From an uncultured Candidatus Saccharibacteria bacterium (GTDB taxonomy: Bacteria > Patescibacteriota > Minisyncoccia > Phycocordibacterales > CAYSCM01), in contig CAYSCM010000001.1 in the NCBI GenBank assembly GCA_964429815.1, positions 164,240-228,239 of the forward strand: 64,000 bases of DNA, read 5' to 3'. Below the pieces are notes generated by a model. The model was not told the origin of the DNA and did not search any database. It worked only from the letters and a program-made list of their open reading frames with translations. The translations under genes and the position numbers were made by a program. Each line of letters starts with the position of its first letter. Positions within the stretch are counted from its first letter, which is position 1. This document shows, in pieces, positions 8,178-42,566 of the stretch.

Positions 8178-8284
8178 CGATACCTCCTTAGATCAGATTC
8201 GGGGCAAGTTTACAGGAAATATTGTAAAAATCAATAAATGTGATATAACTGGCTTGAAAGTTCTACTTCTTATTGGAGGTATCC

Positions 8285-8392
8285 ATGGCCCGTGAATCCA
8301 AAGGTTTCTGGCAAACCTGGGAAGCTCCTATTGGGGCTGCACTTATGCTCCTGGTACCCGCCATAGTGTTGGTTCTACTCATCAAATGGTGA
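8285..8392 (+). CDS. small membrane peptide (35 aa), divergent from paralog 2
   Basis: MARESKGFWQTWEAPIGAALMLLVPAIVLVLLIKW. Shares the GFW..W motif plus TM with the peptide at 7315. Conserved upstream promoter-like sequence and downstream terminator. Confidence 0.4.
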   Translation: MARESKGFWQTWEAPIGAALMLLVPAIVLVLLIKW

Positions 8393-8449
8393 GGAAAACG
8401 AAACCAACTCGAAGAGGCCCGTCGCTTCAGCTGGGCCTTTTCTTTTTTA

Positions 8450-9157: not shown

Positions 9158-9158
9158 A

Positions 9159-9581
9159 CTAGTAGCAAAGATTTATACACTCTTCCAAATCACCAATAAG
9201 TGGCAGACCCTTTGCCGCCGTTGGCTTAACCCAGCGAAATGCTTTGTGAGATTTCGGATCGATAACAATCTCTTCGGAGGGAGCACGGAGCTTATACATG
9301 TGATAGCAAAAATCGTACTCCGGATACGAAACAAAGACTTCCTGTATAAACTGCAGAGCATCGCCCGGCACGATCATGCCCGTCTCTTCCTTAAGCTCAC
9401 GCCTCAGTGCGTCGACGATTGATTCTCCCTTTTCTCGCTTGCCGGCAGGAACGCCCCAGGTGTTTCCTTGGGGCTTAGTATCCTGCCGCAGGAGGAGTAA
9501 AATTTTTCCCCTGTTTTCCACAAAACAAGAGACAACATCAAAGAGAGGGTCGAATGTTTTTGGTTTTTCTATATAGAGCAT
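9159..9581 (-). CDS. NUDIX hydrolase
   Basis: Nudix box GKREKGESIVDALRRELKEETG. Confidence 0.8.
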   Translation of the reverse strand: MLYIEKPKTFDPLFDVVSCFVENRGKILLLLRQDTKPQGNTWGVPAGKREKGESIVDALRRELKEETGMIVPGDALQFIQEVFVSYPEYDFCYHMYKLRAPSEEIVIDPKSHKAFRWVKPTAAKGLPLIGDLEECINLCY

Positions 9582-27200: not shown

Positions 27201-28154
27201 TCAAAATCCTATAGCGCTGCACCTCGGTGCTTCTCCGAATCCCGGACAATATTGCTGGCAATCAGCGAGAGAGGAAAAGGCTACTTTCCCAGTCTCGATT
27301 CCCTTCCCCCAGGTGCAGAGTGTTTCCTGCGGGGCATTAAAAAGACTCTGTGGCTCTTGTGGCGGAGGTGGCAGGTTCGTCGTTTGTGATTGTAAAACGT
27401 CAGCCGACACCGCCGTGCATCTGCCCGAACAGGTTCGCTGGCACTCATCCATTGATGCAACATAGTAGCGTCGTCCTTGATATGAACCGTTATCTTCACG
27501 AAGTTCGCACGCCGCCTGAGAACTTATGCTAGTTGGAATCCCGTTTATAATCGGAGTCTTGTTTGGCTGGGTCGTTATTGTCGTCGGGCTCCCCGTCCCG
27601 GGCGTTGTGGATGGCCCGCCGAGGAGCGAATTATTTTTTACAATCTGCGGATTGATGGTGACGAGGAGTACGTAGGAGAGAAGGATGATAAGAAGGCCGT
27701 ATATCGCGGATTCAATGTAATCACGCCCACCCTCTTTCCCAAACGGCGTACTGCTCAGCATGTACTTGAAACCGCCAAAGGTAATCATAAGAACGGCGAG
27801 AAGCGCTGCGATGCCAAGGCCAAAATCAAAAATAGTATTGAGGACACTACTGAGACTCCCGTTGTTTTTTGTGTAAAGCCCTCCAATATTTTCAAGGGGG
27901 ACGAAACCTTGAGAGCCGGTTACTTGTGTTCCTAAGGGAGTAGTTTGTAAGGGGGAAGCGTCACCACATCCACCGGTTCCTTGTACATCAACGCAGGGTG
28001 TGCCCGATTGCGCTGGTTGAAGTGCAGAAGAACAATTTTCCGTATAGCCTCGAGAACAGGAGTCTCCAGATTCTGCCTTAGAAAAGGCAAACGGCAGCAT
28101 CAAAAGACAGAGAATGGAGATTATTATTTGTGACTTTCTCATATCATTTACCAA
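27201..28154 (-). CDS. secreted Cys-rich protein with a central two-TM hairpin
   Basis: Signal peptide. Central hydrophobic pair IAALLAVLMITFGG and LLIILLSYVLLV. Overlaps its neighbour. Confidence 0.45.
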   Translation of the reverse strand: MVNDMRKSQIIISILCLLMLPFAFSKAESGDSCSRGYTENCSSALQPAQSGTPCVDVQGTGGCGDASPLQTTPLGTQVTGSQGFVPLENIGGLYTKNNGSLSSVLNTIFDFGLGIAALLAVLMITFGGFKYMLSSTPFGKEGGRDYIESAIYGLLIILLSYVLLVTINPQIVKNNSLLGGPSTTPGTGSPTTITTQPNKTPIINGIPTSISSQAACELREDNGSYQGRRYYVASMDECQRTCSGRCTAVSADVLQSQTTNLPPPPQEPQSLFNAPQETLCTWGKGIETGKVAFSSLADCQQYCPGFGEAPRCSAIGF

Positions 28155-29163
28155 AGTTTATTTGAAGGGCTATCGATGTGGCCTGAAAAATTTGCGAAAC
28201 ATTTTGTAGCGAGAGAGCAAGATTTGCTGTGCCCGATGATGGGGCCGTCTGGCGCAGCACTACATCGGCCGGATTTTTACTCGAGGGAGTCACGCTCTTG
28301 TCATTGAGCGTCCAGGCGTAGGTGAGCGCTCCTCCGCCGCGGGAATCCGTCGAGAAAAAGTACGGGAAGGCGGAGACCGTCGCCTCGCTTTTAGTGAGAT
28401 TGACACTTTCAGGAAGTGCCCGGTCGAAACGAAATCCTAGAAGTGGGTCGTTTTCATAGAGGATGACGAATGGCTCGTCTCCGTTGAACGAGAGGGAACG
28501 AGTTGCTTTGATGGAACCATCCGAACTCGCTACGTCTACCGACACATTGATCCCGCGATAGACGCGGGCGCCGGGGATGGTAACGGACTGAGCGCCGCGC
28601 CCCGAAGAATCCCCCAGCACCTGGCCATTAAGGTGCCACGTGTAGAAAAGGGCCTCAGGCCTGATGCGCGCGCCGTTCTCGTCTACGAAAAACGGCATCG
28701 CAAAGAGGACCATCGTGGCGTCATAGGGAGCGAGAGCTTTACCGCGGTAAAAGGGCGGGGTGTAGACATTCGCTTGCCACAGCAGATCAAGGCCTGCCGG
28801 GCGAACGATGGCTGTTTTGGTAAGGGTCGAGCCATTGGGGAGTGTTGCGTTAACGCGAAGCACATTGATGCTTCCAATACCGCCAACCGTGAAGTGGGCC
28901 GTGACGACACCAACCCCTGAGTCAATGATCTTCCCGTTAAGGCTCCACACCAAGGTGGCGCGGGCAAGGTTTTCTGCGTAACTGGCGACCTGGGCCGATA
29001 CGGCTTGACCCGCTCCGGGTACCTCAGGCGAGAGGGAGAGCGAAAAATCTCCTGGCACGGTGGGCAAATTTAGCTGTGCAAAGAGCGTTGTAGGGAGCGA
29101 AAGGGCCGCGACGAGGAGTGTCGTCGCGCAGAGGCCGCGCATGATTCGGGGGGAAATAGTCAT
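28144..29163 (-). CDS. hypothetical secreted protein
   Basis: Signal peptide MRGLCATTLLVAALSLPTTLFAQ. Beta-rich. Confidence 0.5.
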   Translation of the reverse strand: MTISPRIMRGLCATTLLVAALSLPTTLFAQLNLPTVPGDFSLSLSPEVPGAGQAVSAQVASYAENLARATLVWSLNGKIIDSGVGVVTAHFTVGGIGSINVLRVNATLPNGSTLTKTAIVRPAGLDLLWQANVYTPPFYRGKALAPYDATMVLFAMPFFVDENGARIRPEALFYTWHLNGQVLGDSSGRGAQSVTIPGARVYRGINVSVDVASSDGSIKATRSLSFNGDEPFVILYENDPLLGFRFDRALPESVNLTKSEATVSAFPYFFSTDSRGGGALTYAWTLNDKSVTPSSKNPADVVLRQTAPSSGTANLALSLQNVSQIFQATSIALQINFGK

Positions 29164-29777
29164 CAGGCTGCCTTCACTTTGGCTTGAGATTTATTATATT
29201 CCCTATCCTCCTGGTGAACGAGGCGGATTTCCGACCACACGCACATCGTCCATATAGGTATTGCATTTAACCCAGGCGCTAATTTAACCGCGATGAGAAT
29301 CAAATCTCGGATCGGGCGTTTTAGTGTCAAAAAGTTATGACCAGAAGTAGCAAACCATCCAATGAAAATAAAGAAAATCACGATCGACAAAACCGTGTTG
29401 ATGATGAGTCCAATGATGAGAAAGGTGAGAACAAGTTGGATAAGATCGAAAAACATCGCCACTCCCATCATGGCCGCATACTGAAGTCCTCCGATGCGGT
29501 GACGTTTTTTTGCGGGTACGGAAACGCGTTGGGCCGTCGCCACTTGAGCGGGCTCCCGTGGTGAAACCCGCGTATATCCCGATGGCTGCCGTTGCCAAAA
29601 CGCACGCTCTTGCGGGTCGAGTTCCTTACTCCCCATGCTCACCTTCGGGTTCCCGCCTATGCGAATGCCTCGCTTTACTCCTTCGGCTCGTAAGGCTTCG
29701 TATTCCTGTCGAGTCATGGAGGGATCCGCTCCAGCCGGAGGGGTCCACTTTTTTGATTGCGGGTCACGCGGAGGCAT
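29163..29777 (-). CDS. membrane protein, 3-4 TM, basic N-terminus
   Basis: Hydrophobic core FFDLIQLVLTFLIIGLIINTVLSIVIFFIFIGWF. Immediately downstream of the VirB4-like gene. Confidence 0.5.
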   Translation of the reverse strand: MPPRDPQSKKWTPPAGADPSMTRQEYEALRAEGVKRGIRIGGNPKVSMGSKELDPQERAFWQRQPSGYTRVSPREPAQVATAQRVSVPAKKRHRIGGLQYAAMMGVAMFFDLIQLVLTFLIIGLIINTVLSIVIFFIFIGWFATSGHNFLTLKRPIRDLILIAVKLAPGLNAIPIWTMCVWSEIRLVHQEDREYNKSQAKVKAA

Positions 29778-29779
29778 GA

Positions 29780-31612
29780 CTATTTATTCGCCTCGGCCTC
29801 GAGCTCCTGGCGGGCCTTTTTAATAGCGAGAATTTGGCTCGGATCGGAGGTGATGATTTGATCTTCGGTATAAGAGGCGATGATTTTGATGGCGACGTGT
29901 TTGAGGCCGGCAAAGAATATCCCCTCTCCCACGTCCGATTCCAGGAGCAGGTACTTTTCCTCGTCGGTGAGGTTAAACGTTTTCTGCACGTTGTCGATGG
30001 AGGTTGGCGATTGCTTCAGCAGCAGCTGAATGGAGGAGTTGGTTATCATAGGGAGCCCGTAGGGAGAGTTCAAGAAATCAGAAACGTCTTGCGTGATGGT
30101 GGCAAGACCCAGGAAGTATTTGCGCCCGCGTTTGGCGACCGAAAAGAGGAAACTCGCCGTATCCTCGCTCTGCATCATCCAGTGCGCTTCATCGACGATA
30201 AAGAGGCGTTTCTTGAGCTCCTTGCGCACTGCGGTCCAGATGAAGTGCGTGACGATGTACATGGCGACGGGCTTGAGCTCATCCTCCATGTCGCGCACGG
30301 AGAATACGACAAAATTTTTGTTGATATCGACATTGGTCGGGCGATTGATGAAACCTGCCCACGTACCCTTGGTGTACTTGGAGAGGCGCTGCACGAGCGA
30401 CTCGGAGCCTTCCATTCCGGCGAGCACGAGCTCGAAGTCGGAGAGGAGCGGCGGCTCGATGCTGGTGAAGTCGCTCTCCCCCGTTATGTCCTTGAGCGCA
30501 TAGGTTTCCGTGATAGCCCGGTCGATGATGGAGTCTTCCTCCGGCGTTAGGCCGCCGAGCATGATGCGGAACAGGCCCACGAGATTCACGATGTTGCTTC
30601 GAAGCACGTCGCCGGGAGCTTCGTCTTCCCGCGGGGTCGGCAGGTCGAAGGGGTTGATGTGGTGCTCGGAGGTGAGGGATATGTTGAAGTAGCGCCCACC
30701 GACGGCGTCCGCCATGTACTCGTACTCACGCTCAGGGTCGATGACAATGACCTCGGTGCCGAACATAAGGGAGCGCAAAATTTCGAGCTTTACCGCGTAG
30801 GATTTGCCGGCGCCGGATTTTGCGAACGTCACCGAGTTGTAGTTTTCGAGGCTAAAGCGATCAAAGAGGATGAGGGAGCTGTTGTGGCGGTTGATGCCGT
30901 AGAGAATTCCCTTGTCGGAAGTGAGATCGAAGGAGACAAAGGGAAAGAGCGAGGAGAGCGGCGAGGAGTTGAGCTTCGTGTGCACGGAGAGCTCATCGGA
31001 GGCTATGGGAAGTACGGAGCGGAACCCCTGCTCCTGCTGAAAGAGCGCGGGCTTCACGTAGATGAGGCGGCTCTCGAGCATGGTCTTTATCTCGCTCTCC
31101 ACCTTGTCGAGCTCTTCCTGCGAGTTGCCATAGATAGAAATGTAAAGCCCGACATCGAAGAGTTTCTCTTGCGCCTGCTGGAGCTGGTCGCGGAGCGATT
31201 CAAGGTCACGATAGGCGGTGTCGAGCATTGGATCGCGCACGAGCCCGCGCTCCTCTCGGGTCGTGATCTGACTTTGCACCTCCGCGACCTTTTTTTGGAA
31301 TTTCCGAAGCACTGTAGCGGTGTCCGCCGGATGCACGAATATGGATACGTCGAAGACCCGATCGAGATTTATGATGGGAGCAAACCAGGAATCCGCGAGG
31401 TAGCGTGGGTAGGAAATAACAAATAGCGTGCGCACCAGCTTGTCGCCGAGATTCATCTCCCGCGGGGTGATCTTGAGCGCTGAAGGGGCGATGATGTCGT
31501 GGAACTCAAGCGCTCCCGCTTCATAGATTTCCTGCGGCAAAATGGGAGTGACCGGGACTTCCCTCCTCTTTTTCCCGCCCAAGCCTCCTGTGAGAAAATC
31601 AAGTAGAGCCAT
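29780..31612 (-). CDS. VirB4/TrbE/CagE-family type IV secretion ATPase
   Basis: Walker A FAKSGAGKSYAV, Walker B RLFIVDEAHWMM, motif TITQDVSDF. 610 aa. Confidence 0.8.
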   Translation of the reverse strand: MALLDFLTGGLGGKKRREVPVTPILPQEIYEAGALEFHDIIAPSALKITPREMNLGDKLVRTLFVISYPRYLADSWFAPIINLDRVFDVSIFVHPADTATVLRKFQKKVAEVQSQITTREERGLVRDPMLDTAYRDLESLRDQLQQAQEKLFDVGLYISIYGNSQEELDKVESEIKTMLESRLIYVKPALFQQEQGFRSVLPIASDELSVHTKLNSSPLSSLFPFVSFDLTSDKGILYGINRHNSSLILFDRFSLENYNSVTFAKSGAGKSYAVKLEILRSLMFGTEVIVIDPEREYEYMADAVGGRYFNISLTSEHHINPFDLPTPREDEAPGDVLRSNIVNLVGLFRIMLGGLTPEEDSIIDRAITETYALKDITGESDFTSIEPPLLSDFELVLAGMEGSESLVQRLSKYTKGTWAGFINRPTNVDINKNFVVFSVRDMEDELKPVAMYIVTHFIWTAVRKELKKRLFIVDEAHWMMQSEDTASFLFSVAKRGRKYFLGLATITQDVSDFLNSPYGLPMITNSSIQLLLKQSPTSIDNVQKTFNLTDEEKYLLLESDVGEGIFFAGLKHVAIKIIASYTEDQIITSDPSQILAIKKARQELEAEANK

Positions 31613-31614
31613 AG

Positions 31615-32250
31615 CTATAGGTTCGCTGCGATCGGCTTTTCGAGCTCACCGGGGTTGAAGAGTTTGTAGTAAAGCTCGATGGCTTCCTCGGTGCCTAAGG
31701 TCGCGACCCTAACTCCGGTGCGCACGAGCCCTTGCTCGACGACCGCGACGCGTTGCTCAAGTTGGGTGCGGCTCTCTTCGAACGTCGCGGCGGCCTCCTC
31801 CTTCGTTTTTTTGCCGAAGCTCGGGAGCGTTGGGAGCCCGCTTTTTCCCACGGAGAGCACCGCCGGCGAGTACGGCACAACGATAAAGAAATTTTTCGTC
31901 ATAATGTTGGCCTGCTCGACGAAGCTTTTTATGAAATCAATGTACTCGCGTGTCTGGATTTTCATAAGCTCGGTGGTCTGCTCTTTGTACTTTCCCTCAA
32001 GGAGCGCCACGTAGGGGCGGATATCGAGCTGGCGTGATTCGATGAATATCTGGATGGAAAAGTCGAGCGAGTTGAGGAAGTTTTGGAACTGCGCGAGGAT
32101 GGCGGTCTGTTCGTCGGCGGATTTAAGCGCAAAATTGAGCGAGGAGGCGATGAGAATGGAGCGCAACCCTCCGTCCTTGAGGACCACGATGCCATCACGC
32201 ACCTCCTTGATGGGCACGAACTCCTGGCTTGCTTTTCCGGCGACGGCCAT
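31615..32250 (-). CDS. hypothetical T4SS-associated protein (possible VirB4 N-terminal domain)
   Basis: 211 aa cytoplasmic protein, apparently translationally coupled upstream of the VirB4-like gene. Confidence 0.5.
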   Translation of the reverse strand: MAVAGKASQEFVPIKEVRDGIVVLKDGGLRSILIASSLNFALKSADEQTAILAQFQNFLNSLDFSIQIFIESRQLDIRPYVALLEGKYKEQTTELMKIQTREYIDFIKSFVEQANIMTKNFFIVVPYSPAVLSVGKSGLPTLPSFGKKTKEEAAATFEESRTQLEQRVAVVEQGLVRTGVRVATLGTEEAIELYYKLFNPGELEKPIAANL

Positions 32251-32256
32251 GGTGAT

Positions 32257-32670
32257 TTAGCGATAGGCGCCCGTTTTCTCCTTTATATCGAGGCTCCAGG
32301 CGAGATCCTTAAGTTTGCTCTCCGAGAGCTTAGGCACGACGATAGTCGCCTCCAGTTTCGTCTCCGGAGTGGCTTTTGCGGCGGCTTTGGGAACAACCTT
32401 TTTCCAGAGGTAGAGCCGGCCGCGCATCATGTAGTAGAAGGCCGCCTCGAGAGTCTCGATGAACGGACGATTATTTATCTTATAGAACGCAAGTGCAGCG
32501 GAAAGCGCGGCGACCGGAATACCAAGGAGTATCACGAGAAAAAGTGGCAGAAAAACGTAGAGAATGGCGATCACTCCTCCACCGCCGGCGAGGTAGACAA
32601 ACTGGCGGAACGTGAGGGGCCCCACTATCTTGTCTTCCACCTCAATGAACTGCGGCACCTGGAACTGCAT
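32257..32670 (-). CDS. VirB3-like two-TM small membrane protein
   Basis: MQFQVPQFIEVEDKIVGPLTFRQFVYLAGGGGVIAILYV.... Position just upstream of the VirB4 gene module. Confidence 0.5.
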   Translation of the reverse strand: MQFQVPQFIEVEDKIVGPLTFRQFVYLAGGGGVIAILYVFLPLFLVILLGIPVAALSAALAFYKINNRPFIETLEAAFYYMMRGRLYLWKKVVPKAAAKATPETKLEATIVVPKLSESKLKDLAWSLDIKEKTGAYR

Positions 32671-32743
32671 AGAAGTAGTATACCCCGCGCAAAGCCGCAT
32701 CGCGGCTTTGCGCTGTAGATTCGGCGCGTACTACTATGAGTGC

Positions 32744-33034
32744 ATGAAATTCTATACGCCAAACTATGGAAACGCTTCACACGACGCCCGTCCGCAGTTT
32801 GAAATGCGCGGCAACGCCATCTACATCACCGCGCACCACCCCGGCTTTACCCCCAAAGGGGCGGTGCTCCCCTGGTATGAAAATAGGGGCGGGAAAGTCT
32901 ATGCGACCGAGCATCACCCCGAGGGCAAATCACTCCATCCGGTCTATGAAATCCGGGGCGATAGGGTGCACACTACGGTCGAACATTCTCAGCACGACCC
33001 ACTACGCCACAGCTTTGAACTCCGCCTGCATTAA
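32744..33034 (+). CDS. small tandem-repeat protein (3 x ~22 aa, YE-RG----T-HHP motif)
   Basis: Opposite strand, inside the operon gap. High GC3. Repeats PQFEMRGNAIYITAHHPG, PWYENRGGKVYATEHHPEG and HPVYEIRGDRVHTTVEHSQHD. Confidence 0.4.
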   Translation: MKFYTPNYGNASHDARPQFEMRGNAIYITAHHPGFTPKGAVLPWYENRGGKVYATEHHPEGKSLHPVYEIRGDRVHTTVEHSQHDPLRHSFELRLH

Positions 33035-33042
33035 AGCGAGTT

Positions 33043-33441
33043 CTATTTTTTTCGATATACAAATACTGACTTTATGCCGATGATGATCAGACTGATCAAG
33101 AAGAAAAGTATCGAGAGGAAGAACGAAATCCGCCCCTTGTCATTCGGAAACATCCAGTCAGTGCTGGTATTTGGCGCGATAAGTATCAACGCCACGGAGA
33201 TTGCAAGAAACCACTGGGCAAAGCGGATCCACATTCGGAAAATTTCATCTCGGAGTTTATAGGTGACTAAACTCAAGATGAACAAAATTGGAAAAAACCT
33301 AAGTAAATCAATCAACCACAAAGTCTGATCTCTACAGAAAAAAAATTTATCTTGACATCCATTACGAAGCACGAGGCTGAGAAGGATAAGAAACATTCCC
33401 GCGCCTATTCCGGAAAAAATTAAAAGAGTTTTTTTGGTCAT
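33043..33441 (-). CDS. small polytopic membrane protein (AT-rich gene)
   Basis: 132 aa with four hydrophobic segments. Confidence 0.5.
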   Translation of the reverse strand: MTKKTLLIFSGIGAGMFLILLSLVLRNGCQDKFFFCRDQTLWLIDLLRFFPILFILSLVTYKLRDEIFRMWIRFAQWFLAISVALILIAPNTSTDWMFPNDKGRISFFLSILFFLISLIIIGIKSVFVYRKK

Positions 33442-33443
33442 AA

Positions 33444-36440
33444 CTATCTCAATCCTACCGTCACCGAATAGGTCTTTCCATCATCTAGCTGTGCAGACAC
33501 TTTATACCAGTACCCAGGAGTAACCCCCTTCGTGTTCCAGTTGTAAATATATTGCCCTGGTGCCGAGTCCCAACGAAACTCACCTCCAGAGGTGCTGGGG
33601 TCGGAATATGTTGACTCATCGATGGCGGCAGTTAAAGTCGAGCCTTTAATCGGGGTAAGCCAAACTGGATTTTTACCTGCTTGTGCTAGCATTCCATTCA
33701 CTTTCTTAAGTTGGAATTTTACCGGTACGGTACTTCCTCCTTTAAAAACGCTTAGAGACTGAGTGGGATTAATCGACGGGTCGTTTATTGGCTGGAGAAA
33801 ACCGCTCCACCGATAGGTGATAGTCAGTGTGCCGACAATAAAAGAGGTGAATTGGTAGGTGCTCGAAGTTAAGGTGCCTATGGTGCAAATAATTGGATAA
33901 ATTCCAATACCAGTTGTTGCTGTTGCCGTGGTTGAACATTGTGGAACCCCGGCAATGTCGTTGTGTGCCGCATCATCGCCATTTACAAATCCGCTGAAAC
34001 TTACCGTAAAGGAAGGAATAGGAGAACCGAGCACGATGGTTTTATTATCCACGGTGACCGTAAGGGGATTGAAAACTACTAGTCCGTCCAACTTCGGAGT
34101 GAGAGAATAAACTGTAGTTCCGTCTCCGTTTACATCGAGTGAGAGAGGACTCGCGCCAGCGATCGTCCCGTCAGAGAAATTCATAGTCGCGATGGTAGTT
34201 GTTGCCGAAGGAATGTCTGCGAACGTTGTTGTTGCAAGAATAGAATTCCCTTCAACCTCTTCTATTTTGAGAGTAAATCCTCCAGCCGATTCTCCTTCCA
34301 ACCGCAGAGTCGGGAGGTCTTCTGCAGGGACACTCACGTATTTAATGTCACCAAACTCAGTGTACGTTGCTCCTGGGATGGTATTTTCAAGAATCCTTGT
34401 ACTCGTTGCTAGTTTCAGGTGGTTCCCATTTTTATCATTGATCTCAATGGAAAGTGGTGAGTGCAGGAAGTATCTTAGACGCTTTTGAATTAAATGAGAG
34501 GGAACTTCTTTGGAGATGTATTGCGGTAGCTGTGCTGCGCTATTTATAATGATACCGTCAATCAAATCGTTGAGTTGCCCAACTTCAAGGATGTCTGCGT
34601 GGTCTCTGCCCAAAGGAATAGTGAGTCGGTTGTCCTTATTGAACTGGTTCAAATCAACCCAATATCTGCTCACGTTAGGCGAGCTCGTACTCATCGTGAG
34701 CGCACTTGGAGTGACTACAGTTCCGTCCCCATCGACAACGATGCCAAGGTCTTCGTCGAGACATGGGTTGTACCTGAGACAATGGTAAAAGCCACCATTT
34801 CGATAAGAAATATTACCCACTGTTTCGTTGCCCCACCCCGCAATTTGATACAACTGAATTCCCGACGGTGGAACCCACGTATCGAGATGGCTATGCAGGA
34901 CGTCAGCATCATTCAAGAGCAATGCATTACCGACGAGAGGATAGGTCACATTGGAAAATGAAGGCCCAGTTCGCCCCTCGATCCCCGAGACAAATGAAGC
35001 GAGCTCATTGAAAGTATTTATATTCGAGCCATAGGCGTCAGTAAATATTTTTGTCGTGCTGCCGCTCCGAAATGATATGGGTGGAGTAATCACATCACTC
35101 CCAGGCCCGTCAAAGTACGCTCGGGACGGGAGGAGGTTGTACACCATTGGAGAATTTTGTGCGAATGCGCGCGCCGTCGCCTCGCTTAGAACGAACCCCA
35201 AGGCATGTGATTGATTGGTTCCATCCAGGAGAGCCCCTACGGCGATAGGGGTCCCCGTTTGAGGAACGGCGACAAAAATAATCTTGTCGATAAGGGAGCT
35301 AGCTTCCGGACCGAGTATTTCCATCAATCTTTTGGCCAAAAGGCCCCCGTTGGAATGGGCGATGATAGTGACTTTTCCGGTATTCGAGGTTCCGGCCAAG
35401 CGTCGAAGTTCCTGGAGTATGTACGGGGTCGTAGTGGAGCGGAGGTTTCCCGAATAGTAGATATGATCGCCGACCTGATGCCCATACTTTAGAATATCAT
35501 CGAGCGACAATCGCCAGTCATAAGCAGCCGGCAGCCAATCCTTGATCGTGCCGGCGGTTTTGAGTTGATCCATTTCACCGATAAAACTTTTGTAAATATT
35601 CGCTCCGGTCGGCAATTCGTCGATAACGTCGCCGATTTTTGTATATATATCGCCACGCACGCTTGAACCATCCGGATTCATGAAAAGATCCCGCGCATCG
35701 GCATTGCTGAAGGGCTCCCACAGTCTATCTTCCCCTCCGCCGTCGGCCGGGCGATATAAGCGACTTGCCTCTATGCCAGGCAAAAAGAGCACGTTTGAGT
35801 TGCTTTGCGTATTGATATTACTCGTTCCGAGTTCGTCATACATCAGAAGATCGCCCAGGTCTGGGCGTGCACCGAATTCTGCCGACAAAGCGACGGTGTC
35901 GATGAAATCTCCCGCCGCATGAGCCACGGCGCCTACCCACGAGCAGTGTCCAACATCAACATCATCTTGCTGAAAACATGTTTCCTTGGCACCTACATGA
36001 TCTCGCCATGCAAAAAGATATTGATGCCACTGTCCATCGAGAGGAGTAAATCTATTTCTGAATTCACAATTGGTTGAAGCCGAAACATTCGGCGCACCGG
36101 TACAAAGTAAAACGATGCTGCCGTACCCAAATTGAGCCCATCCGCTCTGGGCTTTTGCGTAGAATGTGATGTTTCCTTCGGTTAACGGAGTCCCTGTTTT
36201 GTAAATTCTAGGAATTTGGAAAAGCACGGTACTTTGAAGACATTGACCGGAGATACACCCGCTGCTCACTTGGGTAAACGGGCCTACACTTCCACCGTAC
36301 ACGTTCCAGCCAAAGTATCCGAAGGGTAAATCGAAGGAGTCGGAGACGGGAGCGGCCGCAAACGCGTGACTGCCGGAGAGAAGAAGAAAAAATAGTCCGA
36401 AAACGAAAACGAAGAGTCGCCAGTAGCGGACTTTTTTCAT
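33444..36440 (-). CDS. large secreted protein with an alpha/beta-hydrolase (lipase/esterase-like, AHSNG) domain and C-terminal beta-rich repeats
   Basis: Signal peptide. Nucleophile elbow IIAHSNGGLLAKRL in the GxSxG lipase pattern. 998 aa. Candidate effector or adhesin of the cluster. AT-rich relative to the rest of the window. Confidence 0.6.
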   Translation of the reverse strand: MKKVRYWRLFVFVFGLFFLLLSGSHAFAAAPVSDSFDLPFGYFGWNVYGGSVGPFTQVSSGCISGQCLQSTVLFQIPRIYKTGTPLTEGNITFYAKAQSGWAQFGYGSIVLLCTGAPNVSASTNCEFRNRFTPLDGQWHQYLFAWRDHVGAKETCFQQDDVDVGHCSWVGAVAHAAGDFIDTVALSAEFGARPDLGDLLMYDELGTSNINTQSNSNVLFLPGIEASRLYRPADGGGEDRLWEPFSNADARDLFMNPDGSSVRGDIYTKIGDVIDELPTGANIYKSFIGEMDQLKTAGTIKDWLPAAYDWRLSLDDILKYGHQVGDHIYYSGNLRSTTTPYILQELRRLAGTSNTGKVTIIAHSNGGLLAKRLMEILGPEASSLIDKIIFVAVPQTGTPIAVGALLDGTNQSHALGFVLSEATARAFAQNSPMVYNLLPSRAYFDGPGSDVITPPISFRSGSTTKIFTDAYGSNINTFNELASFVSGIEGRTGPSFSNVTYPLVGNALLLNDADVLHSHLDTWVPPSGIQLYQIAGWGNETVGNISYRNGGFYHCLRYNPCLDEDLGIVVDGDGTVVTPSALTMSTSSPNVSRYWVDLNQFNKDNRLTIPLGRDHADILEVGQLNDLIDGIIINSAAQLPQYISKEVPSHLIQKRLRYFLHSPLSIEINDKNGNHLKLATSTRILENTIPGATYTEFGDIKYVSVPAEDLPTLRLEGESAGGFTLKIEEVEGNSILATTTFADIPSATTTIATMNFSDGTIAGASPLSLDVNGDGTTVYSLTPKLDGLVVFNPLTVTVDNKTIVLGSPIPSFTVSFSGFVNGDDAAHNDIAGVPQCSTTATATTGIGIYPIICTIGTLTSSTYQFTSFIVGTLTITYRWSGFLQPINDPSINPTQSLSVFKGGSTVPVKFQLKKVNGMLAQAGKNPVWLTPIKGSTLTAAIDESTYSDPSTSGGEFRWDSAPGQYIYNWNTKGVTPGYWYKVSAQLDDGKTYSVTVGLR

Positions 36441-36496
36441 CCGGGAAGCCTACCATTGTCCCGCTTAGAGTCAATGCATACCGTGGCGTGCATTGA

Positions 36497-36534
36497 ATAC
36501 TCAAATTATAAGCTATAGCTTATAATTTGAGTAT
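36497..36534. repeat. 38-bp perfect palindrome, copy 2
   Basis: ATACTCAAATTATAAGCTATAGCTTATAATTTGAGTAT. Differs from copy 1 by a symmetric paired change (C/G to A/T) that keeps the dyad symmetry perfect. Confidence 0.8.
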
Positions 36535-36590
36535 GGTGTTTTTCTGCTGCACACCGCTCTGAGCCTACAACGACATCTGGTCGGGTCTGA

Positions 36591-37493
36591 TTAGGAGAGG
36601 GGTTCGCGGTAGGGGTCGACTTTTGGCTTTTCAGGACCTGCGGAGGCGGAGGGGCCTATCGGTGGCACGATTTTTTTCTCCTGCATCGGGGAGCGCACCT
36701 GGCTTTGGAGCTTCGCCGCGGTGAAGTCTTGTCCAAAAGTGCGAAGTGGGGGAAGTGAGCTTTCCTGCACCGGCGCTCCCACCACCGGCCCTCTATTAAT
36801 AGAGGGGGTCGGGGCAGGTTGCGGTGCGACCAGAGATGTGGCTTTTGTCGGAGCTGAGGAGACCGAGGCCGGACGGACGGGAATTTCTGGCGTCTTTTGA
36901 AGAGCAGCTATCGCGTCGGCGAGAGCTTCTCTGCCGCCGGGCGCCGTCGAGGGGCGCGCAGGAATTGAACTCGAAAGTGGAGGTTTTGTCTGGGGAGGGG
37001 GCGGGGCTTGCCTTGGTACTTGCTCCCCAGGTGGCCTTTGTGGTTGCGGGGTTTGCGTCGCGGGTTGCGGTCGTGGTGTTTGTTGGGGTGCGGCTCCTCC
37101 TTCCCCACCGCGGGCATGTGCGAAGGGGGCGGATTGAAGGGAGGGCGTTATATCTCCTTTGAGAGGAGTTTGTTTTGAGGGTTCCTCGGTAATTTTTTTA
37201 AGAGAGTCGCGAATGGGTTTAAAAATCTGTTCATTAACATCCAGAACAACCGAGCCGACTTTTTCTACAGGAAAACCACGTTTTCGAAGTTCATCTGGTA
37301 GTACCTCAGCCTTAATTTCTCCAAGAATGACTAGCGTGATTACATCACTAAGAAGACCAACCTTATCAATGAGTAGCGCCTGTTTCCTACCAATGGCTTG
37401 AATAGCTTCTGTTACTTTCTCAGAAAAAAGAACGTCTTGGAGTTCTGAAGGAAGTTGGAATATCCGTCTTATTTTTTGCTTAGTATCGATCAT
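36591..37493 (-). CDS. Pro/Gln-rich protein with a globular N-terminal domain
   Basis: 300 aa. Low-complexity PQPQRPPGEQVPRQAPPPPQ region. Confidence 0.5.
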   Translation of the reverse strand: MIDTKQKIRRIFQLPSELQDVLFSEKVTEAIQAIGRKQALLIDKVGLLSDVITLVILGEIKAEVLPDELRKRGFPVEKVGSVVLDVNEQIFKPIRDSLKKITEEPSKQTPLKGDITPSLQSAPFAHARGGEGGAAPQQTPRPQPATQTPQPQRPPGEQVPRQAPPPPQTKPPLSSSIPARPSTAPGGREALADAIAALQKTPEIPVRPASVSSAPTKATSLVAPQPAPTPSINRGPVVGAPVQESSLPPLRTFGQDFTAAKLQSQVRSPMQEKKIVPPIGPSASAGPEKPKVDPYREPLS

Positions 37494-37498
37494 ACTTC

Positions 37499-39943
37499 TT
37501 ATGGAATCCTACCGAGAGTGTGGAAGAGACGTCCCCCTTGGCTATTTCCAAAGTTTGCTAGCGCAAGTATGGCAGGATCGGTCGCACCCGCGTTTCGGCG
37601 ATTAATTACTTCTTGCATAATGGCATTACCAGCACCCACATCAGCGCCTGCTTTCATCATTTCTCGAAGCGCTTCTTGTTTTAGGTGAGGAACAAGCTCG
37701 GGAAGGAGGGTGGCTCTCGTACTTGAATCGTCATAGAGACCCAGCGCCATTTTGGCCATTGCCTTGGGATCAACCCGCAACTTCTTAATATCCGTACCAA
37801 AGGTTCCAATCGCTCCATGGCCCAGAGACTCTTTAAGGAAATCCCCTCGCTGTTTACCAAGTGCCGCTTTAATACTGGCGGCGATCTTGTCGCTTTTCAT
37901 AACCTCGTCGTATTTATCCTGGGACAGTGTCCTCGCCAAGGTGTCGATTTGTCCAGCGAGGGCCTTTTCAGTAATTATGAGCTCGAGCTCTTTATTGTTT
38001 ACCTTGTCGAATTTCTTTATTAACTCCTCGTCTTCCGCTGAAAGATGGCCAGGAATTGCGGCCGCTGCCGCACGTGCAGCATTTTCCAGAAGTTCTTTGT
38101 GACGAGCGGTGGTTACTTTATCGCGCATTTCGTCGGTGTACTTATCATTTTTCACATCAGATATGGATAGATACTGTGAAGAGGTAAGATTCTTCGCTAC
38201 CCAGTCTTTTGTCAAAGTCTTCACCCCCAAAGAGGCCAGCTGCGTATCACTCATCGCACCAAGAGCTCGAAGACCTTTTGCTTCAGCTTCTTGTTTTTGT
38301 GCGTCTGTGTATTTTGTTGGATTCTCACTGATCTCAATCGCGCGCTCAATGTCGTCGCGGAAGTCTGCCTCCCTGCGTACCGCAGCACGCCCGAGCTTTT
38401 CCTTCTTAACCTCTTCCTTGATCGCGACTCCTGATTTAGTCGTTCCAAACTTAGCACCTGCAATTAGGCCGGTGGTGTACTTGCGGGCAAGGGAACCCAA
38501 CTGGGTCCCACCAATAAGGCGTGACTGAGCGAGCCTTTGATCAAGGTTCGCAATGGGCCTGCCAATTGCATTGCGGGCCAGGAAGCCACCGCCGTATTTG
38601 CCGATAGATTTTACAGTAAAGTTGATTGCATTCAGGCCTTCATTGCCAATTTTTTTTGCAACCGATAGGGTTAGAAGTGATAATCCAATAACAACTGCAA
38701 AGTTTATTAGCAATTGGATTGATCCGGGGGCAGTAGCCGCCGAGCTTCCGTCCGCTAGGTCCGCAAACGTTCCATTACCAATAGCGGTTTGAAATGCTGG
38801 ATTTTTCATTACACCCAACACGAACCACAATAATCCAAAGTAGGCCGGTAGCATTATCGCATTTGACCAAAGCGCCCCCCACCACTGGTTCCATAGTCCA
38901 CCGAAGAAGGGTAAAAAACGAGCAAGCACAGCTAACGGAGAGGTGACCATTAGCACAAGGAATACAATAATTCGCCCAATTATATGTAAAGCAGCGATGA
39001 GGAATGAATAGGCAAGGATTATAAAGAGAATGCAGCCAAGCATACTCAAAAGAAAACTATTGCCATTACTGAGCAGGGCGGCCGCCCTACTGCCGGTGAA
39101 GTTTTTCAAATCATATAAAGACCCCATCCGTAAAACTTGCATAAACTGTCCCGATAGCCCGACATCCGAGTTTAGAAATTGATCAGTCTGCCCCTTCGCA
39201 AGTAACTGAGTGTAGAACTGTGTTGAAATATAATTACTTGCATCGATTACGACCCTTGTTAGAGCGAAGCTAAAATTTATCAGTAACGCCGCTATTACCA
39301 CGTTCGCCAAAAGTTTTTTTGCCCCGTATTGTTGTACCCGCAATATGGTGGAAATGCCGATAATCAAAAGGCTGAAAATAAGAACAATATTCGCCACATC
39401 ACGAATGGTCATCCAAAATCCGTCGAGAGTACCGAAGGTCTTTATTGTTGTTCCAAAGTCAAGAACACCCCACACCACCACCTTGTTCAAGAAGAACCCG
39501 GCAACTCCCAGAATCCAAGCAAACAAGGTTAGGAATGCGTACCCAATACATCCGATGGAAATATCAGGAATAAAGCCGACGTACGGGTCACAGTTGGGTG
39601 GCTTACTTCGTATATCGTCACCCTTTTTCTTTGAGGCATCGGCTGCTTGTGTATCGGTACTTTCCCTTACGTCTGCATCACTCACAGCGTCACCCTTTAC
39701 GGTAATTAAGGAACCATCGGCCGCACGATAAAAATACGGATCAGTTATGTTTTTCCCTGGGCCAAGCAATGTATAGGTCTTTCCATTCCAAGTGCAAGCT
39801 GGGGGGTAGTTGTTTGCGCCAGTGGCTGTGCAAAGAGGGTCCGCGGCGAGAGCAACTTCTGTATGTAGTGAAAAGCCATACCCAACCACAAAAGACTTTA
39901 AGATGAAAATTGTGAGTAGTAATGTTGAAACAGCTTTTCTCAT
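37499..39943 (-). CDS. VirB6/TrbL-like polytopic membrane protein with a long C-terminal extension
   Basis: At least eight TM helices in the first 450 aa, then a charged coiled-coil-like tail. 814 aa. Confidence 0.55.
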   Translation of the reverse strand: MRKAVSTLLLTIFILKSFVVGYGFSLHTEVALAADPLCTATGANNYPPACTWNGKTYTLLGPGKNITDPYFYRAADGSLITVKGDAVSDADVRESTDTQAADASKKKGDDIRSKPPNCDPYVGFIPDISIGCIGYAFLTLFAWILGVAGFFLNKVVVWGVLDFGTTIKTFGTLDGFWMTIRDVANIVLIFSLLIIGISTILRVQQYGAKKLLANVVIAALLINFSFALTRVVIDASNYISTQFYTQLLAKGQTDQFLNSDVGLSGQFMQVLRMGSLYDLKNFTGSRAAALLSNGNSFLLSMLGCILFIILAYSFLIAALHIIGRIIVFLVLMVTSPLAVLARFLPFFGGLWNQWWGALWSNAIMLPAYFGLLWFVLGVMKNPAFQTAIGNGTFADLADGSSAATAPGSIQLLINFAVVIGLSLLTLSVAKKIGNEGLNAINFTVKSIGKYGGGFLARNAIGRPIANLDQRLAQSRLIGGTQLGSLARKYTTGLIAGAKFGTTKSGVAIKEEVKKEKLGRAAVRREADFRDDIERAIEISENPTKYTDAQKQEAEAKGLRALGAMSDTQLASLGVKTLTKDWVAKNLTSSQYLSISDVKNDKYTDEMRDKVTTARHKELLENAARAAAAAIPGHLSAEDEELIKKFDKVNNKELELIITEKALAGQIDTLARTLSQDKYDEVMKSDKIAASIKAALGKQRGDFLKESLGHGAIGTFGTDIKKLRVDPKAMAKMALGLYDDSSTRATLLPELVPHLKQEALREMMKAGADVGAGNAIMQEVINRRNAGATDPAILALANFGNSQGGRLFHTLGRIP

Positions 39944-41601
39944 ATCGTTTGTTGTTGCGGGAAGGCGTAGCAGGCATCGAGCCTCTGCAAGGCGTCCTGA
40001 ATGAGCGGATTTATTTCGGCGAGCATGTCGGACTGCTCTTGCTGCGCTGTTGCGATATCGGCATCGGAGGGGAGCGCGCCGGAGGATGTGAGTGCAGTGA
40101 ACTGGGCCGAAGCGGCATCGAGCTCGTCGGGAGAAGTTGCATTCTGTATCTGGGATTCAAGTTGATACGCCTGGTTGATAGCACCCTGTGTTTTGGCGAT
40201 TTGAGCCGAGAGAGCCACCTTCTTGGTCGTGACGAGGCTCGCCTGCGTCGTCGAGGCGGCGAGAATGCTTCGCTGCGCCGTCGCTAGGTCGGTGGAGCTG
40301 AGGGAAGAGCTGGCAATTTTGTTCCGGTAACAGTCAATGAGGCTCCCGAAATCGCTGTCGGCGATGAGCACTTGGTTTAGCGTCGCCTGCTTGACGCTTA
40401 TGTACTGCTGGGCTTTAGCGATCGAGACATCGACGAGCGAGAGACCCGCACTTTGACGCCCCGAAATTTCTGCTGATTGCGCGTTGGCGACGTAGACGTC
40501 AAGTGCGGTACCGCCGCCAAACTGGCCGTTTTGCGTCGAGAGACCCTTGACGCCGCCGAGCGCGAGAAGGCCTTGCTTGATGAGCTGTCCGACGAGCGCG
40601 GAGATGATGGAGTTTATGTCATTGGCGAGCTCGAGCTGGTCTATATCGGTGCCTAGGACTTTTGAGAGCTGATCTTGTATCGCCGCTCCCGGGGTGACGA
40701 TGGTGCAATTTGCTTTCGGGTCCGTTTTATAAGGATCTTGTCCAGGATAGTAGGTCGTGAAGGTGCCGCCGGTGCCGCTTGTTCCGTCGCTGTAGGTGGT
40801 TATAGGTGATTGGCTGCTGCACTGTTTGAACGAGAAGAAGCCGCGGCCGAACTCAAGAAGCTTCGTGTTGGTGTACTGCGCGCTCGCGATACGCACGGAG
40901 AGCTCGCTCTGTGCCATGAGGTAGGAGCCATAGGGATTGTTTTGCGGATTGGTTGTCATCGCAAACCACGCGGGCCAACCGCCGGCAGCAAAATTCGTGA
41001 ACGCACTGTTGACGTTTCCGACGACGCTTGAGAGTGTGCAGCGCGCTTTGTTTTGGTACGGTTGGAAATTAAGCGCGAGCGCGACGCGCACCTGGAGCTG
41101 AAAGGGGGAACACAGGAATGAGAGTTCGGAGCCGTAAATAAATTCTCCTATCACCTGGTCGGCGACGTTGGTGAGGAATCCTTGAAGGTCGGTGACGAAG
41201 GCGGGATTCCCCTGAAAGCCGTTGTTTATCCAATTGACGATGCTTCTGGTGAGCTGCGCAAGGAGCGTCTTGGCGATGAGGATGATGATGGGCTTAATAA
41301 CACAGTCATGAATGGTCGCGCTTTCGGTCGCGCCCTGGATGCCACCGCTCGCGATATGGAGATACTTGTCTACGGCTGGGACATCAGCAGCTTGAAGTCC
41401 TATAGAACTGACCCCCGTTGCCTTGCCCTGAATAAGGGAGCTTAGGCAGAAAGCCGTATCGGGGCCGGCGGGAGTCTGAGCACTCGCCCTCTGGGGGAAG
41501 AAAGAAATAGCGGCAGCCCATGGCGCCAGAAGCACGACGAGGAGGAGCCCGGCGATTTGCCTTTGCATTGAGCCACGGATTGTAGAAATAAGCCCCCTCA
41601 T
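39940..41601 (-). CDS. hypothetical secreted protein (553 aa)
   Basis: Signal peptide LLLVVLLAPWAAA. 4-nt overlaps with both neighbours. Confidence 0.5.
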   Translation of the reverse strand: MRGLISTIRGSMQRQIAGLLLVVLLAPWAAAISFFPQRASAQTPAGPDTAFCLSSLIQGKATGVSSIGLQAADVPAVDKYLHIASGGIQGATESATIHDCVIKPIIILIAKTLLAQLTRSIVNWINNGFQGNPAFVTDLQGFLTNVADQVIGEFIYGSELSFLCSPFQLQVRVALALNFQPYQNKARCTLSSVVGNVNSAFTNFAAGGWPAWFAMTTNPQNNPYGSYLMAQSELSVRIASAQYTNTKLLEFGRGFFSFKQCSSQSPITTYSDGTSGTGGTFTTYYPGQDPYKTDPKANCTIVTPGAAIQDQLSKVLGTDIDQLELANDINSIISALVGQLIKQGLLALGGVKGLSTQNGQFGGGTALDVYVANAQSAEISGRQSAGLSLVDVSIAKAQQYISVKQATLNQVLIADSDFGSLIDCYRNKIASSSLSSTDLATAQRSILAASTTQASLVTTKKVALSAQIAKTQGAINQAYQLESQIQNATSPDELDAASAQFTALTSSGALPSDADIATAQQEQSDMLAEINPLIQDALQRLDACYAFPQQQTI

Positions 41602-42566
41602 GAAGAAAGCGTAAGCTTGAGGTTATTCACGAGCATAAAGCTTCCTAGGGTGCGGAAGGACTGGTTGAGCGCGGCTTCTCGCGCCTCATAGCCGCTCATG
41701 GCGACGAAGGCGACGAGAGGGTCGGTCGCGATGGTCTCGAGGTCGGCGAGCGTTGCCTTCATGCCCGAGAGAGCGTTGAGGAGTCCCACATGTGCCGAAA
41801 GTGCGTCGCGCGGAACGTTCATCGACACGAGCGCGCGGATACTTTCCCCATAGAGCGCGACGTCGTGCTTGTAGGTCATCATCCCGTTTGGATCTTGACC
41901 GCTGATGGCATTCTGGAGCGTGAGAAGCTCGTACTCTTTGATGGAAAGGACCGGTGCGAGCGCGGCGCTGAGGGCACGGTTGTATGCGGCAAGCGTCGAC
42001 GATGAGGTGCCGGTGACGGAAACGTCGCCGGCTGCGTACACCGTTGGTTTGGTCGCGACGTTGCCGCTTGCGGCTACGGCATTGACGACCGCCTGCTCAT
42101 CCTCGGGGGTGAGCGTCTGGCCGCCCTGCTTTTTGCTCAAATAATTTTTGAACAGATTGATGGCAAGCGCGTCGGTGTTGCTGAGGCCATTGCCGGGGGC
42201 GGTACGAGCGGTAAGGTCGAGCGTCGATCCTGGAGACGTGACAGACGGACTTTTTCCCTCCCCCGGTGTGAGAGGGTCGCGGCCCTGCGCGACTTCCTGT
42301 CCGTCGGAGACCCCGTCGCCGTCGGTGTCGGGATTGTGCGGATCGGTGCCGCGGAGTTGTTCTTCCCAGTCGGGAAGGCCGTCCCCGTCACTGTCCTTAC
42401 TTGCCGACGCTATAAGAGCGCTACTTATAGCATCTTCCGAGCTCGCAAGTGAGGGGGAGGATGGGGTTTTTGGTTGTAGGAGCGTGAAAAAGGCGACTAA
42501 GGCGACGAAAAGAGCCACCACAATGAAAACAAGTACCAGCCCTCTGCTTGGTAGCCACTTGTACAC
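41598..42566 (-). CDS. membrane-anchored protein with thrombospondin-type-3-like calcium-binding Asp repeats (first gene of the operon)
   Basis: N-terminal TM segment. DSDGDGLPDWEE...DPHNPDTDGDGVSDGQE repeats. Confidence 0.5.
   Translation of the reverse strand: MYKWLPSRGLVLVFIVVALFVALVAFFTLLQPKTPSSPSLASSEDAISSALIASASKDSDGDGLPDWEEQLRGTDPHNPDTDGDGVSDGQEVAQGRDPLTPGEGKSPSVTSPGSTLDLTARTAPGNGLSNTDALAINLFKNYLSKKQGGQTLTPEDEQAVVNAVAASGNVATKPTVYAAGDVSVTGTSSSTLAAYNRALSAALAPVLSIKEYELLTLQNAISGQDPNGMMTYKHDVALYGESIRALVSMNVPRDALSAHVGLLNALSGMKATLADLETIATDPLVAFVAMSGYEAREAALNQSFRTLGSFMLVNNLKLTLSS

Follow-up and report, generated by a model that had tools for sequence, protein, structure and literature searches.

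What is a very large, probably exported hydrolase doing beside genes that resemble a type IV secretion system (T4SS)? This question is raised by a 64,000-nucleotide stretch of contig CAYSCM010000001.1 from an uncultured Candidatus Saccharibacteria bacterium (the whole of which is called the window here), in which a gene at 33444-36440 encodes a protein of 998 amino acids (aa), referred to as the target. An initial annotation of the DNA placed this gene inside the secretion cluster and named its product a candidate effector. The analysis described here indicates that the target is a modular enzyme of the LCAT/LPLA2 type found across the candidate phyla radiation (CPR, or Patescibacteria), and that what accompanies it from genome to genome is a small gene for a four-transmembrane (four-TM) protein, not a T4SS. 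We suggest below that the pair may act in attack on the membranes of host or prey cells.

The target is assigned to the LCAT family

A single open reading frame (ORF) with an ATG start was found at exactly the interval that had been called, public assemblies contain an identical protein (P0001), and the contig itself is present in run SRR12313482 as well. The features that bear on its enzymatic assignment are as follows.

33444-36440, minus strand: whole gene, predicted secreted multidomain LCAT/LPLA2-like hydrolase (ATG ORF, 998 aa; stop codon at 33444-33446)
34521-35798, minus strand: predicted LCAT/LPLA2-fold alpha/beta-hydrolase with cap and membrane-binding-type subdomains, residues 215-640, present in every family member
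35511-35522, minus strand: YDWR motif, Y307-D308-W309-R310, aligned to the YDWR of LCAT
35352-35354, minus strand: codon of S363, predicted catalytic nucleophile in the AHSNGG elbow, invariant in 120 homologs and aligned to LCAT S181
34725-34727, minus strand: codon of D572, predicted catalytic acid in DGDGTV, invariant in 120 homologs and aligned to LCAT D345 (DGDDTV)
34599-34601, minus strand: codon of H614, predicted catalytic base in RDHADILE, invariant in 120 homologs and inside the Pfam LCAT match

Profile score, motifs, and predicted fold together assign the target to the LCAT family (PF02450). Residues 285 to 617 matched positions 68 to 388 of the 392-position Pfam profile with 47.2 bits (cutoff, 21 bits), and a precomputed PF02450 match is carried by most homologs. 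Within the nucleophile elbow, IIAHSNGGLLAKRL (residues 359 to 372), H362, S363, G365, and G366 are invariant in the 120 homologs. The same holds for Y307, D308, and R310 of the YDWR motif; W309 is nearly invariant in the 120 and fully so in a set of 66 sequences. When the family profile was compared with human LCAT by hhalign, a probability of 95.4% was obtained, and the alignment paired YDWR with YDWR, AH-S363-NGG with GH-S181-LG, and DG-D572-GTV with DG-D345-DTV. The human LCAT sequence used has 440 aa, and it is validated by S181, D345, H377, C31, and C50, which occupy the positions published for them. H614 lies 42 residues past D572, and the corresponding spacing in LCAT is 32.

An AlphaFold2 model of the target, built on 66 sequences, had a predicted local distance difference test score (pLDDT) of 81.6 and a predicted template modeling score (pTM) of 0.70, with residues 211 to 998 modeled confidently (pLDDT mostly >90). 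LPLA2 (E = 8e-12; template modeling score, 0.72) and LCAT (E = 6e-10 to 1e-7) were the top matches of this model in Foldseek, and the overall LCAT-family fold, including the cap and the membrane-binding subdomains, was found in it. When the PDB was searched by sequence, whether with the target alone or with a profile, only weak matches to the elbow region were obtained, and neither LPLA2 nor LCAT appeared at E values up to 1. Both a foldable hydrolase domain and a conserved Ser-Asp-His triad were thus found, and the earlier description of a secreted lipase-type alpha/beta-hydrolase, which hinged on the two, stands.

The suggested kinship with PGAP1 and DUF676 proteins was not borne out. PGAP1 (PF07819; 17.1 bits versus a cutoff of 24.3), DUF7379 (PF24096; 27.4 versus 33), and DUF900 (PF05990; 13.2 versus 20.5) all scored below threshold, each with a match confined to about 50 residues around the elbow, and DUF676 gave no match in the Pfam scan at E values up to 10; the right family is LCAT. 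Comparison with Tle-type lipase effectors, also suggested, was apt as far as the fold is concerned, with Foldseek matching the GxSxG lipase fold of Tle4 at an E value of 3.4e-9, but no type VI secretion system (T6SS) genes were recognized in the window, nor were any recognized in five inspected homolog loci.

The hydrolase family is widespread in Patescibacteria

At least 1,386 proteins belong to the hydrolase family at E ≤ 1e-5, and relatives are encoded in at least 542 stretches of species-representative genomes. Members are 37 to 55% identical to the target, and some genomes contain two hydrolase copies. The informatively named sources are Patescibacteria (Kaiserbacteria, Lloydbacteria, Moranbacteria, Kerfeldbacteria, Nomurabacteria, and Paceibacterota), with the one exception of a contig labeled Bdellovibrionales. 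In databases the members go under the names "hypothetical," "PxKF domain-containing" (several homologs at NCBI), or "pimeloyl-ACP methyl ester carboxylesterase" (at JGI, a generic carboxylesterase label), and no description of the family was found in the literature searched.

A four-TM protein is encoded directly downstream of the hydrolase

Immediately after the hydrolase gene lies a second, much smaller gene.

33043-33441, minus strand: conserved partner gene, 132 aa, with four predicted TM segments (residues 4-26, 40-60, 71-94, and 103-130)

Its ATG is 2 nt past the hydrolase TAG stop codon and is preceded, about 12 nt upstream, by AGGA. The predicted topology is N-in/C-in, with outside loops of 13 and 8 aa and a Cys pair in loop 1. 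The occurrence of this gene was examined in the loci used for the synteny survey (87 fetched, 83 nonredundant, 1.24 Mb). A single-sequence tblastn query matched the partner in 53 of the 86 other loci, in every case in the orientation of the hydrolase gene and right behind its stop codon. With a profile, it was detected in 70 of the 75 loci that had at least 330 bp of downstream sequence (66 of 71 once the window's own locus and duplicates were removed), and one further nonredundant locus contained a longer partner-like ORF. The partner typically starts between −10 and +42 bp relative to the hydrolase stop, and overlap with that stop is frequent. Across the family the loop-1 Cys pair is invariant or nearly so, the segment after TM2 reads YK[ML]REE-[IV]F-x-x-W-x-[RK]F, and a Ser is conserved in TM4. 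Neither Pfam nor NCBIfam contained a match to the partner, and a word-indexed homolog search returned only 3 matches.

The copy number of the partner varies in some loci. Tandem duplicates occur in four of them (L005, 13044-14002; L006, 13005-14024; L014, 10386-11552; and L019, 3221-4023). Locus L060 contains two complete hydrolase-partner modules (3455-9829), and in L026 (12336-16187) an inserted restriction-modification cassette, composed of genes for an EcoRI-type methylase and a GmrSD/HNH endonuclease, stands between two partner copies. In the public contig of the target itself (L001, 3265-3453, corresponding to window positions 33074-33262, plus strand), the gene caller missed the partner and called an antisense ORF of 62 aa; miscalls of this kind probably hide the partner family in databases.

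From these comparisons of gene order and sequence, the hydrolase and the partner appear to form a two-gene module of their own, in which the partner is a nearly obligatory and previously undescribed component. As for a cognate immunity gene, a conserved gene is indeed present downstream, but it encodes a four-TM protein without similarity to known families.

Export signal and accessory modules

The remainder of the target consists of a predicted signal peptide and four modules around the catalytic core.

36357-36440, minus strand: Sec-type signal peptide, residues 1-28, recognized by inspection (MKKVRYWR, hydrophobic core, then AFA before and A after the predicted cut)
35826-36356, minus strand: N-terminal concanavalin A-like beta-jelly-roll (lectin- or carbohydrate-binding-module-like), residues 29-205, with six conserved Cys
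34071-34520, minus strand: all-beta "mid" domain, residues 641-790, in 120 of 120 members, strands with pLDDT of about 90, without family assignment
33822-34064, minus strand: MBG_2 domain (PF18676; YGX type), adhesin type, residues 793-873, Pfam score of 57.5 bits versus a cutoff of 25
33447-33806, minus strand: PxKF domain (motif PVKF), beta-sandwich, residues 879-998, NCBIfam NF038114 score of 97.9 bits versus a cutoff of 35

On inspection, the N terminus of the target, MKKVRYWRLFVFVFGLFFLLLSGSHAFA followed by AAP, shows basic, hydrophobic, and AxA parts arranged as in a Sec signal peptide, and it lacks a lipobox Cys; cleavage is predicted after residue 28. An equivalent hydrophobic N terminus is present in 104 of the 114 homologs that start with Met. 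The signal peptide previously noted is thereby upheld, and Sec export is predicted for the target and for the family as a whole. No surface anchor (lipobox, C-terminal TM segment, or sortase motif) was seen in the target.

The N-terminal lectin-like domain had not been noticed before. It was modeled with a pLDDT of 90.4 as a concanavalin A-like beta-jelly-roll resembling the carbohydrate-binding modules of glycosidases, and its six nearly invariant Cys residues fit an extracellular location. A word-indexed search gave no matches to it; about 50 relatives were retrieved when 1.84 billion representatives were searched exhaustively with HMMER (proteins P0124 to P0170). In these the module can occupy either end of another secreted protein, and its fusion partners include an M23 peptidoglycan peptidase, a metalloprotease with a beta-helix, CBM96/Ig-like arrays, and other LCAT-like hydrolases. 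This distribution fits a rare, mobile accessory binding domain of secreted, envelope-acting enzymes, and by analogy the module may bind glycans.

Beyond the core, the C-terminal part had been described as about 450 aa of beta-rich repeats. It is beta-rich; it comprises about 358 aa (residues 641 to 998) in three different modules, and no internal repeats were detected in the target by self-BLAST, with Tandem Repeats Finder reporting only a trivial 16-nt match in the signal-peptide region. In the mid domain, H660-S661-P662, G672, F722, and D769 are invariant and D669 is nearly so. The PxKF match covers the full profile (positions 1 to 113 of 113). Among the 120 members, the core and the mid domain are present in all, MBG in 55, and PxKF in 70; only 2 besides the target have its N-terminal module. 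The stretch that precedes the core is 1 to 787 residues long, and other members carry beta-helix/NosD, DUF5011, CBM96 (labeled "DNRLRE domain" at NCBI), or Ig-like modules. The catalytic unit of core plus mid domain is therefore constant, and the outer modules are shuffled.

Proposed function of the hydrolase-partner module

CPR bacteria have been reported to lack lipid synthesis and, in field lipidomics, to be enriched in lysolipids, for which a phospholipase A is one possible source (PMC7242380). In Vampirococcus, a secreted phospholipase has been proposed to harvest lipids from the host (PMC8080830).

For the target, we consider it moderately probable that it is a phospholipase, exported by Sec and directed by its lectin-like module to the membranes of host or prey cells, and that its membrane partner provides self-protection or docking. 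The lipid substrate, the foreign membrane as its site of action, and the role of the partner are each suggested by analogy. The signal peptide would take the enzyme across the single membrane of the CPR cell, and the jelly-roll, MBG, and PxKF modules would bind glycans or proteins on the surface of a neighboring host or prey cell. The S363-D572-H614 core would then remove an acyl chain from a membrane glycerophospholipid, yielding a lysolipid and a fatty acid, or might transfer the chain to an acceptor, a reaction of which LCAT and LPLA2 are capable. The expected outcome would be a weakened target membrane and the release of lipids to an organism whose lineage is generally unable to make them. 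The cotranslated four-TM partner would remain in the producer membrane, most likely giving immunity-like protection and less likely serving in docking. The adjacent T4SS-like genes would be neighbors in this genome only, unneeded for export.

Several points weigh against this proposal. The substrate is suggested by similarity of a modeled fold at only 15 to 17% identity, and H614 was chosen as the catalytic base for its position and its invariance rather than from an explicit alignment. The membrane-binding domain of LCAT contains a disulfide, C50-C74, which has no counterpart in the target; the hydrolase core contains only two Cys residues, 554 and 560. The fold of the lectin-like module is a generic one, in which no ligand-binding residues were recognized. 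As to the partner, its outside loops are short and, beyond the loop-1 Cys pair, its strongest conservation lies at the predicted cytoplasmic interface, an arrangement that sits uneasily with a protein plugging an extracellular active site; moreover, an immunity protein is often unnecessary for phospholipase-secreting monoderm bacteria. The lack of lipid synthesis is a statement about the lineage, this genome being represented by the 64-kb window only. Finally, the synteny survey extended no farther than 10 kb to either side, and a good many of its contigs are short.

Alternative functions and origins

A different use of the same enzyme was considered, in which it is docked on the partner at the producer's own surface and works as a transacylase or phospholipase in lipid salvage, feeding fatty acids or lysolipids to the partner, which would help to insert or flip them into the CPR membrane. 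A physical interaction between enzyme and partner is proposed in this case. LCAT and LPLA2, the best structural matches, are transacylases as well as phospholipases. The absence of any recognizable anchor in the enzyme would suit docking, and the conserved aromatic/basic interfacial segment and the TM4 Ser of the partner would suit lipid handling better than enzyme inhibition. CPR cells, enriched in lysolipids, also lack a known uptake route. Against these points, the 132-aa partner, with no Pfam or NCBIfam match, has no similarity to a known lipid transporter or flippase, and its tandem duplication is more typical of immunity genes. We judge lipid salvage to be unlikely. It may be put more broadly, with the same reserve: the hydrolase and partner might be the missing lipid-acquisition route of Parcubacteria-type CPR, a surface-docked, ATP-independent, LCAT-like transacylase/phospholipase that hands lipids to its partner. 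Acyl chains or lysolipids would be stripped from the host membrane, and the partner, a new kind of small membrane protein, would incorporate them into that of the symbiont. If true, this would account for the enrichment in lysolipids and also for the lack of known genes for lipid synthesis and uptake.

Another possibility concerns origin rather than function. The AT-rich composition of the target gene had been taken to suggest acquisition, and the hydrolase-partner module could be a recently acquired islet whose position beside the T4SS-like genes reflects insertion of foreign DNA. The gene is mildly AT-rich, with a GC content of 0.486 (0.485 at third codon positions [GC3]) versus 0.536 for the window; GC content is 0.391 in the partner gene and 0.54 to 0.56 in the adjoining T4SS genes. 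This composition is not distinctive, however. GC3 is equally low in dnaN (0.49), the pilin-like gene of the T4SS-like cluster (0.469), and genes g300 (0.445), g814 (0.46), and g896 (0.497), and membrane proteins are commonly AT-richer. Because dnaN, a core gene, is among these, low GC3 is an unreliable marker of foreign DNA in this genome, and composition therefore says little about acquisition. As a separate observation, GC3 forms a mosaic within the window (noted at 21326-22426, 27201-28154, 36591-39943, and 46205-48895), being about 0.45 to 0.50 in some genes and 0.62 to 0.75 in others.

The edges of the module were characterized as well.

36497-36534, no strand assigned: perfect palindrome of 38 nt with 19-nt arms, ATACTCAAATTATAAGCTATAGCTTATAATTTGAGTAT, halfway along the 150-bp gap from the stop of the upstream gene to the target ATG
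32744-33034, plus strand: possible ORF of 96 aa between the partner and PrgI, called by a public gene caller (GC3, 0.65)

The RNA of the palindrome has a predicted folding energy of −21 to −25 kcal/mol. A second copy at 5210-5247 lies between convergent genes and has two mirrored substitutions that keep the pairing, and its location suggests a terminator-like element. Rfam contained no match to the palindrome; the Rfam scan gave tRNAs only and nothing near the target. The palindrome is probably a terminator-like or repetitive extragenic palindrome-like hairpin that would insulate the target module from upstream transcription. A scan for sigma-70 promoters gave fewer sites than a shuffled control and none upstream of the target gene. 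On the other side, 342 bp separate the partner gene from PrgI. The 96-aa ORF within this gap has three internal repeats of [FY]-E-x-R-G-x-x-[IV]-[YH]-x-T-x-[HE]-H and no Pfam or NCBIfam match; should it be real, it stands between the target module and the T4SS-like operon. This layout suggests that the target and partner would constitute a transcription unit separate from the T4SS-like genes.

Recent insertion would agree with a repeated palindrome at the upstream edge and with a module neighborhood that was different in each of the genomes examined. The module is flanked by neither an integrase nor a transposase gene, nor by direct repeats, the hairpin being the sole inverted repeat in 32600-37600. 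Searches for target homologs gave no matches on phages and, on plasmids, only remote Bacillus hydrolases of 23 to 27% identity; no paralog of the target was found in the window. The closest relatives, at 40 to 55% identity, are from the same phylum, which fits vertical descent or exchange within the phylum, not recent import. The AT-richness is real but mild, and we regard recent acquisition as quite unlikely.

The substrate could also be some other extracellular polymer or ester, such as a polyhydroxybutyrate-like polyester, a cutin-like material, or an acylated wall component or glycan, to which the N-terminal module would guide the enzyme by way of polysaccharide. The resemblance of that module to carbohydrate-binding modules of glycosidases and the generic carboxylesterase label given to homologs at JGI would agree with such an activity. 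We hold it to be very unlikely, given the conservation of the LCAT-specific YDWR and DGDxTV motifs and given that the next best structural match, Tle4, is also a phospholipase.

The T4SS-like cluster is a neighbor in this genome only

The window covers ordinary chromosome around the replication origin (dnaA, dnaN, yidC, jag, polA, ruvB, a penicillin-binding protein gene, uvrD, and ksgA). The T4SS-like cluster, at 25931-32700, abuts the jag-yidC and dnaA-dnaN origin region and lies entirely on one side of the target, downstream and on the same strand. It consists of PrgI (PF12666), a split VirB4 of the CD1110 family (374 bits versus a cutoff of 325), a T4SS_pilin-like gene, and four unassigned genes. 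The split VirB4-like ATPase (29780-32250, minus strand) comprises a TraC-like N-terminal piece of 211 aa (31615-32250) and a 610-aa ATPase (29780-31612). Neither a VirD4-type coupling protein nor a relaxase was found in the window. The target adjoins this cluster, its gene lying 743 bp upstream of the first recognizable T4SS-like gene; it does not lie inside it, as had been stated, since T4SS-like genes occur on one side only and the 342-bp gap intervenes.

The seven T4SS-cluster genes searched by tblastn (VirB4, PrgI, the TraC-like gene, the pilin-like gene, and three others) were found within 10 kb of a homolog in 0 of the 83 other loci, and among the 87 loci they matched the window's own contig only. 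By comparison, housekeeping genes used as controls were found near the hydrolase in 0 to 4 loci (PilB in 4, UvrD in 3, and RuvB in 2). With VirB4 at 0 and controls at 0 to 4, the T4SS adjacency is therefore of a kind that chance occasionally yields. Five homolog neighborhoods inspected by hand were all different and mostly housekeeping in content (ftsK/recA/rplJL; glycogen genes and a type IV pilus cluster, in 2 of the 5; dnaE/rnhB; and tRNA synthetases), and none was T4SS related.

The candidate role with which this study began, that of an effector delivered into the host by the adjacent machinery, is thus extremely improbable: the same-strand proximity, the speculation that Saccharibacteria T4SSs deliver effectors (PMC11665869), and the structural resemblance to the T6SS lipase effector Tle4 are set against an absence of linkage in all other loci, five unrelated contexts, a family-wide Sec signal where T4SS substrates are normally recruited from the cytoplasm, the lack of a VirD4-type protein in the window, and the gap, with its possible opposite-strand ORF, between module and PrgI. 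The family is linked to a four-TM protein and not to a T4SS, and a tool for lipid attack or harvest is therefore likelier than a secretion effector.

Comparison with known systems

The nearest structural relatives are LPLA2 (PLA2G15; PDB 4X90 to 4X97) and LCAT (PDB 4XWG, 5TXF, and 6MVD), both of PF02450. The target differs from them in being a distant (15 to 17% identical), bacterial (CPR) enzyme, in having its core set in a 998-aa protein with lectin-like, mid, MBG, and PxKF modules, and in being paired genetically with a four-TM protein. In LCAT, but not in the target, the core also includes the C50-C74 disulfide.

Tli4 is a soluble periplasmic immunity protein, whereas the partner of the target is an integral four-TM membrane protein for which an immunity role is a candidate only. 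Compared with the Tle4-Tli4 pair of the Pseudomonas aeruginosa H2-T6SS (PDB 4R1D), the target lies in a window without T6SS genes and bears a Sec signal in place of VgrG/Hcp loading.

The hydrolases typical of Gram-positive-type conjugative T4SSs are peptidoglycan hydrolases, not lipases. The neighbors of the target match components of such systems (PrgI, CD1110-family VirB4, and T4SS_pilin), but the target itself is not a recognizable component or conserved accessory of them.

The closest precedent in proposed biology is Vamp_34_196 of Vampirococcus lugosii (PMC8080830), a secreted phospholipase proposed to disrupt the host membrane and to supply lipids to a CPR bacterium that does not synthesize phospholipids. 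The gene is not the one described here, and its CPR lineage is another; it is likened to the target by proposal and not by sequence, and that proposal, too, is a genomic inference. The passage describing it names no protein family and mentions neither a conserved membrane partner nor a modular architecture. The idea of a secreted CPR phospholipase is thus not new. What the present comparisons of sequences and loci add is a CPR-wide, apparently Sec-exported, modular LPLA2-like enzyme with an always-attached mid domain and a nearly obligatory, undescribed four-TM partner.

CPR bacteria account for a large part of the diversity of bacteria and for the most part cannot synthesize fatty acids or phospholipids, and the source of their lipids is an acknowledged open question. 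The family described here is a concrete, widespread, and testable candidate, an enzyme of the kind that makes lysolipids and can transfer acyl chains. The analysis also corrected annotation problems, namely, uninformative family labels and a partner missed by at least one automated gene call, and it cautions against reading an effector relation into the nearness of a gene to a secretion cluster in one genome.

Other features of the window

Several large unassigned ORFs lie on the minus strand at 36591-42566 and 46205-48895; they encode a Pro-rich protein of 300 aa and proteins of 814, 553, and 896 aa. Among them is a gene for a protein with bacterial TSP3 repeats (41598-42566). No homologs of these ORFs or of the TSP3 protein were found near other members of the hydrolase family. 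A gene for a XerC/D-type tyrosine recombinase and, near it, a cluster of three tRNA genes at the right-hand end of the window were observed (57982-58893, plus strand, and 62740-63999, plus strand), and two further tRNA genes are present at 1023-1094 and 6417-6490.

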